A DNA stretch of 64,000 nucleotides from Flaccisagitta enflata (Eukaryota): assembly GCA_965153355.1 (NCBI GenBank), contig OZ231126.1, forward strand, positions 14,942,001 to 15,006,000. The letters are read 5' to 3'. Positions 2,821 through 5,769 of the stretch are shown piece by piece. The notes under the pieces were generated by a model. That model was not told the origin of the DNA and did no database searches. It saw only the letters and a program-made list of their open reading frames with translations. Within the stretch, counting starts at the first letter, position 1. Each line of letters starts with the position of its first letter. The position numbers were made by a program, and so were the translations under genes.

Positions 2821-3279
2821 GATTAAATTGAAAATTCGGGACTGGTGTCAAAACATGATTAACACCTCTCACAAAATTAGGCGAACTGGGATCAGAACTT
2901 GTATATAATTGTGTTTCGAACTCCAAAACAGGAGTCCAGGTAAATGATAATTTCAAAATAGTATTCAATATTGGTGATGTGAAATAGTAATCAGCTATCC
3001 ACGTGCAGCAGTAGGTTGAGAAGGCTTGTATTACACTTGCAGAGTGTATTGAGTCCCTGGATCAACGCCACTGGTGTTTTGCGAGCTGAATTGACGATCC
3101 CTTGTTGCTGGCGGCGTGTAGAATTTCCTAGAAATGGCATGGAATCGAGGCGCGCGTTATCCTATCTTTGAATAGAACTACGCTGCTTAATATGAAGCCT
3201 CGACAATCAAGGCATTAAAATGAGGAAATACTCGACATACCTTCTAGACTCTCTGGTAATGTCGACGGTAACGTAACGA

Positions 3280-4139
3280 CTATTTGCCCTTGGCTTTGCC
3301 TTTGCCCTTGCACGGAGATGGAGAGCGGCTGCGAGAACGGCTGTGGAGTTACGGGCGAAAAAGTTATTTTTACATCGTAAATCCCCATAAGCTATCCTAA
3401 TTTTGGACCCAATTTTCAAAAAGCTTACCCTTTTGCAGCATGTCGAGCTGATCGACGTTGGGGCTTCTTGCTAGAGCAACTTTTTGAGCGCGCCCCGACT
3501 TTTGATGGCTTTTTCGCCTTGGATGCGCCCCTCGATCTGGATCTTCCACCGCATTTCGAAGAGCCGCGGGACTTGGATCGACCACCGCGGCCGCGGGACT
3601 TGGATCGACCACCCCTGCCGCGGGAATTGGATCTACGGCCGCGGGATTTGGATCGACGACCACCGCGGGACTTGCTCCGCGACTTGGACGCGGATGGAGT
3701 GGCTTTCTTGCACGCGGTCTTGCCCTTTGATCTCGAGCGTGAGCTGCAATTTTTATTTGTTTAAACAGCGATCAGCATTTATGAAGCTAAGCCGGAGGTT
3801 TCATGGTCTGACGCTGAGGTGCTGTTATCAGCTATTTTAGTGTTACCGAGCGTTTTGGTTGACGTTTTCTTCTTCGTTGTTTCCGTTGTTGTTGGCGTTG
3901 GGGTTATCATTTGCCTCTTCCATTTGGTCTCCGGCGTCTTCGTCACCAGCTTCTTCAACTAAAGCTTCCTCATCCTCAGCGACGTTTTCATCGTCGTCCA
4001 CAACCGCTGCTGCCTCTATGATCTGAAAGGAAAATTTTGAATTCGTGAGTCTGCAATCACTCTGATTTTCGCTGTCATTATGTCAAGTTTTGTTGGCGCT
4101 GAAAAAAAGAAAAAAAAATTGAAAAATTACCTCGGACAT
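3280..4139 (-). CDS. 186-aa protamine-like / sperm nuclear basic protein-like precursor with acidic N-terminal segment; exons 4131-4139, 3847-4022, 3429-3743, 3280-3340
   Basis: All introns are GT-AG and phase-consistent (0,2,2); 561 nt from ATG to TAG. Protein: MSEIIEAAAVVDDDENVAEDEEALVEEAGDEDAGDQMEE...NQNA-RSRSRSKGKTACKKATPSASKSRSKSRGGRRSKSRG...GRSRSRSPSPCKGKGKAKGK*. The functional label is inferred from composition. Confidence 0.8.
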
Positions 4140-4329
4140 GATTTCCTCTTGTTTCGTGTTCGGCGCGTTTTCGGTAAAGCGAAAATCTAACCTCTTGTTT
4201 ACAACATGAATCTGACCATGTCGTTTTTTTCTTTTTTTCAAGTTTCATCTGGTGGATAGTGACGTACATCGCCCTTTTTCTCTAACATCTTCTTGAGTTT
4301 TTCACCGTTTCTTTGTCTCTCTGCTTCTT

Positions 4330-4520
4330 TTTAGTTGCGGACACGCAACTCTATAAGAGGCTTTGTCCGTCCGTCCGTCCGTTGGTCGGTTGGTTGGTTG
4401 GTGGACACGAGTCGAAAAGTGAAGAAATGAGCGTTTTAGAACATTTTTAGTTGCGGACAGTTGCATTTCCGCCCCTGCCCACCCGTCCGCAACTGATGGC
4501 CGTGTATCCGGCCTTGTTTT
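4330..4520 (+). mobile_element. HINE-like family A copy
   Basis: agttgcggacacgcaact palindrome, (GTCC)n, ggccgtgtatccggcc hairpin, ttgtttt end. Confidence 0.7.
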
Positions 4521-4570
4521 TTTCTTGGCTCCATTATCCCCTTCTTACTTTCCGTTTCTTTTTCATCCAG

Positions 4571-4899
4571 GCGTGAAGCACGTGCTTGTGACGGTAAAGT
4601 GTTTGTTGATCTACCCGAACCCCGAGTCTGCTTTGAACGAAGACGCGGGTAAACTTTTACTGGAAGACTACGCCGATTTCAGCTCCCGTGCGAAGATGAT
4701 GACGGAAATCTACGCTCGTACACCTTCTTCGTCCTCTTCATGCACCTCCGGCAGTAGCGAAGCAGCTGAGTCGAGTAGCCGAGGGGGAGTAGGAAGCGGA
4801 GGGAAGAAGCACGCGGGTGATGCGAGCACGAACGGTCCGACCAACAGTGTCGTAGAGAAAAAGAAAAAACTACAGAAAAAATCACTAAAACGTTTGTGA
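4571..4899 (+). CDS. UBE2S: Ubiquitin-conjugating enzyme E2 S, last coding exon (upstream exons not found in window)
   Basis: Acceptor tttcatccag| then [48 protein letters not shown]...KKHAG...[12 protein letters not shown], matching the UBE2S UBC C-terminal half and its basic tail (human ...KKRALRRL). Confidence 0.93.
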
Positions 4900-4915
4900 A
4901 TTCGTCGACGATGAA

Positions 4916-5117
4916 GCAAGGCCGGATACACGGCTACCCTAGTCGCGTGCGGGTAGGCAGGGCAGTGATGAAACTGACCAACTAGACAGTTGGGCAGGAG
5001 CAGTAACCCCTAAACTGCCCATAAACGCGGAAAAAAAGCAAAGTGTAATGGACGGACGGACCGACCGACCGACAGACGGACAGAGCGGGTTGTAGAGTCG
5101 CGTGGACGCGACTAAAA
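4916..5117 (-). mobile_element. HINE-like family A copy directly after the UBE2S stop codon
   Basis: Reverse-orientation copy: caaggccggatacacggc ... (GGAC)n ... agtcgcgtggacgcgactaaaaa. Confidence 0.7.
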
Positions 5118-5769
5118 ATTTATCCATTACATCTGGAGACATTCTTTGGCATCATCACTTTATTAACATTCATGCTAGCATTTTCACGTACGTCATTCGT
5201 AGTACGCCATTCTTGCGCCACACTTGCGAAAACATTACGGGGATTTGCCTCGTGAAAATTGGATGAAATTGCAACTGATTTTCAAAATTGTAATGAGCGA
5301 AGTTTCAGGGAAGATGCGAGAGAGAGAGATAAAAGAGACTGATGAGCCTGGACCAGAAGAGGCGCAACAGGATGTGTCCTTTGAGCCTCGGCGTTTCTAT
5401 TCTCACTGGTGCCACGCCTCTGCTGCTGCCGCTGTCGCTGCCCGTTACGCAGCGCCACTTGTGGCTCACGCACTCGCACACACACACATACACATACACA
5501 CATAAACAGCGCTGCAGTGGATTAAAATAGCGGGCTTTTAACCGACGCCGCTTCAGCTGTTTCTGTAGCTGCCCCTGCTGCAGGCTGCGTCCGTGATCTA
5601 GAATATGTATCTGTGAGCTCATGAGCGCCACTGGGTAACGATCTTCTTCTCCTGCCGCAGAAGTGACAACATGCAACAGTTTGATTCCCGCGTGCCAAGG
5701 GTGGGTTGTGTGCGTGCGTGCGTGCGTGTGTAAGCGCGCGCTTGTGCGTGAATGTGACGTTTTCTGAAT

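Follow-up and report, generated by a model that had tools for sequence, protein, structure and literature searches.

An acidic-then-basic protein with an HMGN-type motif in the chaetognath Flaccisagitta enflata: a candidate sperm nuclear basic protein

The window analysed here, a stretch of 64,000 nucleotides (nt) of the chaetognath Flaccisagitta enflata (contig OZ231126.1 of assembly GCA_965153355.1, positions 14,942,001 to 15,006,000 of the forward strand), contains a minus-strand gene for a protein of 186 amino acids (aa). The gene is spliced, expressed and under selection, and its aromatic-free product consists of an acidic leader, an Asn-rich linker, a body of Arg/Ser/Lys/Gly repeats, an HMGN-type motif and a Lys-Gly tail. 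We propose that it may be a chaetognath spermatid or sperm nuclear basic protein, transition- or protamine-like, made with an acidic leader of its own that is possibly trimmed later, and we put the probability of this reading at about 0.5. The HMGN-type motif, an intron in the 3′ untranslated region (UTR), the history of the gene copies and the placement of the host among chaetognaths, not molluscs, go beyond what an initial annotation of the same DNA had reported.

The protein is encoded by four coding exons (4139-4131, 4022-3847, 3743-3429 and 3340-3280), separated by GT-AG introns of 108, 103 and 88 nt. A short 5′ UTR (4140-4180) leads to coding exon 1, which has three codons (4131-4139); intron 1 (4023-4130) and exon 2 (3847-4022) follow, the latter encoding the acidic leader, whose last third is Asn-rich. 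Intron 2 (3744-3846) is in phase 2 and lies at the charge switch, exon 3 (3429-3743) encodes the repeat body, and beyond intron 3 (3341-3428) exon 4 (3241-3340) encodes an RS/SP stretch, Cys and the Lys-Gly tail, with the stop codon at 3282-3280 and then 39 nt of UTR. The 3′ UTR is interrupted by a GT-AG intron of 113 nt (intron 4; 3128-3240), which is kept in the C7 copy described below, and continues in exon 5 (2901-3127, where 2901 is the edge of the stretch compared).

The initial annotation had described a strictly bipartite product, and both its model and all of its counts were reproduced from the letters. Residues 1-61 hold 22 Asp/Glu (D/E), 12 Asn and no Lys/Arg (K/R); residues 62-186 hold 50 K/R, four Cys and no D/E. 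The complete acidic-then-basic order of the 72 charged residues has p = 6e-19 against random order, a value that ignores the natural clustering of low-complexity tracts. The basic part (13.3 kDa) is 22% Arg, 18% Lys, 25% Ser and 15% Gly (R+K 40%), with 27 RS/SR dipeptides, three RGG and a longest Arg run of two; at -22 against +50, the leader offsets under half of its charge. The switch indeed falls on the exon 2/3 junction, since intron 2 interrupts the codon of the first Arg (CG|C), and read-through of intron 2 meets a stop right after that Arg, as had been predicted. The absence of a globular domain was also confirmed: no Pfam family scores above the cut-off on exons 2 and 3, none of the 186 residues is aromatic, and a single-sequence structure model of the C7 basic exon is coil, with a predicted local distance difference test (pLDDT) score of 53. 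There are no matches among PDB sequences, the C7 exon included, and no signal peptide is evident by eye.

Three copies of the gene are present in the genome: C1 (the window copy, 186 aa), C2 (95%, 190 aa) and C7 (79%, 216 aa). All have a leader of 61 aa with 21-22 D/E and no K/R, all keep every splice site, and in all of them the basic part is free of D/E; the number of repeats differs, exon 3 being 315, 327 or 405 nt long. The C7 copy sits inside a ubiquitin-conjugating (E2) gene with three exons, in its last intron and on the opposite strand, and the window gene is a duplicate of this nested gene.

Of the RNA runs X1-X12, four were mapped on 2900-5300. X3, X5 and X6 are sets of contigs from three plankton studies and cover the gene; X12 consists of raw reads of another organism, with essentially no reads on the exons. 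The contigs register presence only, with rare forms dropped, and the runs that contain the gene are mixed marine plankton or unlabelled. Exon 1 is joined to exon 2 (at 4024) in X3 and X5, and depth is zero in bin 4034-4114 of intron 1 in all four runs. The intron 2 joint (3743/3847) is found in X3, X5 and X6, that of intron 3 (3340/3429) in X3 and X5, with a 92-nt version in X6, and that of intron 4 in X3 and X6; the X3 contig follows 3126 to 2901 with 0 differences. The window-type repeat and 3′ UTR are found in transcripts with 0 differences, window-type and C7-type forms both occur among them, and in wild transcripts letters of C1 and C2 stand side by side. In X3 and X5 the gene has a far greater contig depth than the E2 exon, but this is a poor measure, since presence of the gene guided the choice of runs.

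An acidic-only peptide, which the initial annotation had expected from retention of intron 2, finds no support: no retention is seen in the contigs, from which rare forms are dropped, and depth in the intron 2 bins equals the share of their exon part alone. P0002 and P0004 end in intron 2, yet they read through intron 1 too and therefore come from unspliced sequence. Nor is there any sign of extra upstream exons, such as might encode the RNA recognition motif (RRM) that the annotation had named as evidence to the contrary; the 5′ ends behind the transcript-derived proteins P0003 and P0008 lie ~40 nt before the ATG, and reading upstream in the genomic frame meets a stop at 4244 without passing any Met. 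Both records diverge from the genomic frame 12 codons before the ATG, in what we take to be library adapter, and transcription would start at ~4175-4181. In P0008, a C7-type transcript, the middle of exon 2 is joined out of frame to the beginning of exon 3, at what may be a GC donor; it is a single record and may be a misassembly. Three transcript variants (P0012, P0013 and P0014) have insertions in the Asn-rich linker region, so that leader length is variable in the wild population.

Purifying selection acts on the annotated frame. For the window copy compared with the C7 copy, the ratio of nonsynonymous to synonymous change (dN/dS) amounts to 0.35 here, against values of 1.05 and 0.99 for the other two forward frames (Fisher p 0.002), over ungapped blocks of ~150 codons that exclude the variable repeat core. 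The +1 frame is open across exon 3 and was recorded by metagenome gene callers (P0006-P0015). In P0007, a diverged transcript recorded in the +1 frame only, 28 of the 34 differences can be accommodated with the main-frame residue unchanged, and nothing requires a D/E in the basic part.

Residues 156-166 (3431-3463), near the C-terminus, are identical to a human HMGN2 fragment (PMC3298710) of the motif with which vertebrate HMGN proteins hold on to nucleosomes, at nine of 11 positions in C1 and C2 and ten of 11 in C7. These scores are reached by none of 200,000 composition shuffles, for a motif chosen after being seen. At one position the window copy carries His in place of the Leu of HMGN2 and of the C7 copy; the RRSARLSA core, which lies inside exon 3, is matched at 7/8 positions in C7 and 6/8 in the window copy, and RRSAR is intact, being kept in all three genomic copies and compatible with P0007. 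RRSAR alone appears in 2-3% of shuffles, and the extended pattern PxRRSARLxAK has a genome-wide count of 1 versus 2 in the control. Pfam HMG14_17, for the nucleosome-binding domain of ~30 aa, has no match on exon 3 in either the window or the C7 copy, nor any in a genome search whose control also matched nothing. No canonical HMGN octamer gene was found elsewhere in the genome (two matches versus seven in the control, neither in the reading frame of the pattern). In the cryo-electron microscopy (cryo-EM) structure of HMGN2 on the nucleosome the five residues modelled, at the acidic patch, are RRSAR (PMC12487698, where AlphaFold 3 is reported to fail on this complex), and related motifs are functional in tardigrade Dsup (PMC6773438) and in yeast Dot5 (PMC12871379). 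We regard residues 156-166 as a probable nucleosome anchor, and not as a mark of HMGN family membership.

A further gene, reached via a weak match to the C7 exon, is predicted at C2:44452051-44453799, with four exons and a product of 140 aa. Its leader of 24 aa has five D/E, three K and four N, its Asn-Ala-RSRSRS junction is the same as that of the window gene and its repeats are similar; the tail is of His/Cys type with repeated Val-x-Ala-His units, and the HMGN motif is absent (4/11). Five further copies, at C1:35.85, C7:40.76, C7:9.71, C5:64.91 and C4:43.72 Mb, encode one 136-aa protein and lie in a block with 96-99.97% identity among them, which measures 25.4 kb in the one pair compared; this gives at least six copies, with 40 of 5089 candidates scored. 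The block contains no long open reading frame and no terminal repeats. This predicted gene and its copies probably represent a second member of the family of the window gene. A promoter common to the two was considered and rejected, as 126-849 of 1000 shuffles score as high. Head-to-head with the C2 paralog, at a distance of ~0.4 kb, begins a gene whose product is long, charged and of low complexity.

Composition, variable repeat number, Cys and a multicopy His/Cys relative together fit sperm nuclear basic proteins, as does a repeat number that varies among copies beside a leader constant at 61 aa. The chromatin role put forward in the initial annotation has become more likely through the HMGN-type motif and the multicopy protamine-like probable paralog. 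N-terminal trimming of protamine precursors has been described as common (PMC12216123; see also PMC5550673, PMC11607694 and PMC13251019), and the cleaved domain of mouse PRM2 is required for histone-to-protamine exchange (PMC9273070). Chaetognaths are hermaphrodites with testes (PMC2481426), and plankton RNA can therefore carry testis transcripts.

A sperm protein of this design would enter the nucleus, where RRSAR might dock on the H2A-H2B acidic patch in the manner of HMGN2, Dsup and Dot5, and the repeat body could bind and condense DNA, tuned by RS phosphorylation. The leader would damp DNA binding or take up displaced histones; because it balances less than half of the positive charge, full masking is less likely than either of these roles. 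Trimming in the Asn-rich linker, the most tentative of these steps, might finally release a basic product of ~13 kDa. The HMGN-type motif suggests action while nucleosomes are still present, as for a transition protein. In its fullest form, which we consider doubtful, the protein would be a one-chain histone-to-protamine exchanger: the HMGN-type arginine anchor would find nucleosomes, the leader would park displaced histones and the RS/K repeats would coat the freed DNA before the linker is trimmed, forming with the multicopy His/Cys paralog a chaetognath sperm chromatin system.

Several observations weigh against the sperm reading. No search returned a relative beyond near-identical plankton sequences: exon 2 against longer proteins gave three matches among 66 candidates, all near-identical; residues 15-125 of P0003 returned the same three among 652; the C7 basic exon had none among 8000 scored; a search of cluster representatives gave six, all this gene or close forms; the Atlas gave no usable match; and none was confirmed among 598 and 594 stretches of JGI contigs. 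The basic part has no Arg clusters (longest run two), a winged-helix domain is lacking, and it is from somatic proteins that the HMGN motif is known. Taken alone, the leader shows no significant constraint (dN/dS 0.55, p 0.30), and none of its ten changes is to K/R, at P 0.25. The paralog scores z 5.3-6.6 against the window gene over composition shuffles, which destroy the repeat structure, so that convergence inflates z, and the Asn-Ala-RSRSRS junction alone is matched by 77 of 5000 shuffles. Bivalve precursors are said to be cleaved in an Asn-rich linker, which we did not find in print.

The HMGN-type motif raises a serious somatic rival, in which the protein is a somatic or general germline nucleosome-binding architectural protein, an uncleaved analogue of HMGN or Dsup with its acidic region N-terminal and not C-terminal. 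This is possible, at a clearly lower probability than a sperm protein, and explains the motif and the three-part layout equally well, with cleavage unnecessary. HMGNs are defined by a nucleosome motif, a basic tail resembling a nuclear localization signal (NLS) and an acidic region (PMC11537863), and HMGN-like versions of all three are present here; the motif matches HMGN2 at 9-10 of 11 positions, no other DNA in the genome encodes PxRRSARLxAK, and the residues modelled by cryo-EM (PMC12487698) are those kept in 3/3 copies and compatible with P0007. The Leu to His change in the window motif speaks against it, as do the unmatched Pfam HMG14_17 (with its unmatched control), the probable paralog without the motif and the post hoc choice of a motif whose core arises in a few per cent of shuffles and whose extended pattern is no commoner than in the control. 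To our knowledge, moreover, HMGNs have no long RS/SKSRG repeat body.

Acidic-then-basic blocks also occur in nucleolar proteins, and the 27 RS/SR dipeptides and three RGG would suit a disordered RNA-processing or nucleolar protein of RS/RGG type, whose charge blocks serve partition into speckles or the nucleolus. In favour of such a protein, about half of chaetognath genes are trans-spliced (PMC12460157). We consider it improbable: neither an RRM nor any other domain is present, nothing points to exons further upstream, no relative of the conserved splicing-factor kind was found, and the HMGN motif and the multicopy His/Cys paralog would be left unexplained. Least probable is that the overlapping +1 frame gives the real product, or that the window copy represents a duplicate in decay or a haplotig of the assembly. 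Over exon 3 the +1 frame is open, and P0006-P0015 record it; a 23.5-kb block is common to C1 and C2 (91-99% identity), and their letters are mixed in wild transcripts. However, the +1 frame evolves neutrally, most P0007 differences could leave the main-frame residue unchanged, transcripts match the window-type repeat and 3′ UTR exactly, and a haplotig would alter the copy number, not the protein.

The surroundings of the window copy bear on its origin. An orphan last E2 exon, presumably UBE2S-like, lies on the plus strand at 4571-4899 (Pfam UQ_con, E 1.4e-4; 91% to C7); it is still open, with dN/dS 0.12 against C7, and its upstream exons were not found, the E2 catalytic exon being located only on C7 among 40 candidates scored. 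The C2 copy of the orphan exon is shortened by a repeat. At 2971-3080 (plus strand) is the remnant of a membrane-protein gene that is a neighbour in the C7 locus (73% to C7:50048260-50048374, E 8e-12). In C7 this piece sits ~4.8 kb further on, and therefore ~4.8 kb including E2 exons 1 and 2 were probably deleted from the window copy after the duplication. The 23.5-kb block common to C1 and C2 either arose by duplication or is a haplotig of the assembly. Neither terminal repeats nor target duplications are evident where the duplicated blocks end. The C2 copy (C2:64396149-64400143) is bracketed by inverted repeats of ~250 bp with 83% identity. An abundant short interspersed repeat of ~200 bp, at 2613-2819, 4324-4519 and 4914-5121 of the window, is absent at the matching places in C7, its copies having inserted in the duplicated segment. 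Elsewhere in the genome, the chaetognath spliced leader (Table 3 of PMC2481426) has 120 matches at ≤1 mismatch versus 0 for a control, which marks the genome as that of a chaetognath, and spliced-leader genes form tandem arrays with periods of ~0.86, 1.09 and 1.37 kb (C4:24.72, C5:2.49-2.66, C6:45.78-45.80 and C7:6.68-6.79 Mb).

Histone removal and protamine loading are unsettled in mammals too; the cleaved PRM2 domain is indispensable there, and what it does is unclear (PMC9273070). By uniting a probable nucleosome anchor, a putative DNA-condensing body and an acidic tract, one small protein makes a cis-chaperone model testable. The tested non-vertebrate carriers of the HMGN motif named in the available parts of PMC12487698 and PMC12871379 are only Dsup and yeast Dot5, and a close HMGN2 match bears on an ancient versus a convergent origin of the motif, whether the protein is a sperm or a somatic one. 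Among open papers on chaetognaths and protamines, judged by title and start of abstract and with subscription literature outside the scope, none concerns chaetognath sperm proteins; the combination of acidic/basic design and HMGN motif was not found for chaetognaths among the top-listed papers of the open literature, and the three text-file supplements of PMC12460157, as far as available, have no protamine or HMGN entry. If the exchanger model were true, it would supply a sperm chromatin system for a phylum with none found described in that literature.

A bipartite acidic/basic design is by itself not new. With HMGN2, Dsup and Dot5 the protein shares the RRSAR core (9-10/11 to HMGN2), small size, high charge, disorder and one acidic and one basic region; it differs in its long RS/K/G repeat body with Cys and in the lack of a Pfam HMG14_17 match, and its nucleosome binding is a prediction. 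The acidic regulatory domain of HMGN is C-terminal, whereas here it is N-terminal, with no D/E after residue 61. In SR proteins an RRM precedes the RS domain; here there is none, and the 5′ ends lie ~40 nt before the ATG. Nucleoplasmin- and NAP1-type chaperones have a similar D/E-rich disordered tract, but the chaperone core domain is missing here and the tract stands in cis on a basic protein.

The initial annotation had likened the product to protamine-like (PL) proteins of molluscs. PLs have an Arg- and Lys-rich disordered region in the range of 35-50%, and some small PLs are without a winged-helix domain. The likeness stands for composition, with R+K at 40%, and extends to the Ser-rich repeats and possible precursor processing of the bivalve PLs (Mytilus PL-II/PL-IV precursor and PL-III, Spisula PL-I); it fails for the winged helix, which is given as defining for PL (PMC13148410), and the chaetognath protein has in addition a purely acidic 61-aa leader and an HMGN motif, and no sequence match was found. 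P-type protamines are of 3-10 kDa and Arg-rich with Arg clusters (PMC13251019, PMC12216123); the basic part here is larger, has 22% Arg and no run longer than two. The protein is thus neither a PL (winged helix), nor a P-type protamine (size, Arg clusters), nor an HMGN (layout). Cleaved precursors (mouse PRM2 with its cP2 part, squid, bee), which lose the N-terminal part in the course of spermiogenesis, likewise have a non-basic N-terminal part before a basic, Cys-bearing part, but the putative mature part here would be ~13 kDa, with 22% Arg and no Arg clusters. The P1 precursor of the snail Murex is said to have an acidic pro-peptide, a report that we could not confirm (PMC3547057 gives just the names of the proteins). 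Most likely, the chaetognath protein works like a protamine precursor that carries an HMGN anchor.
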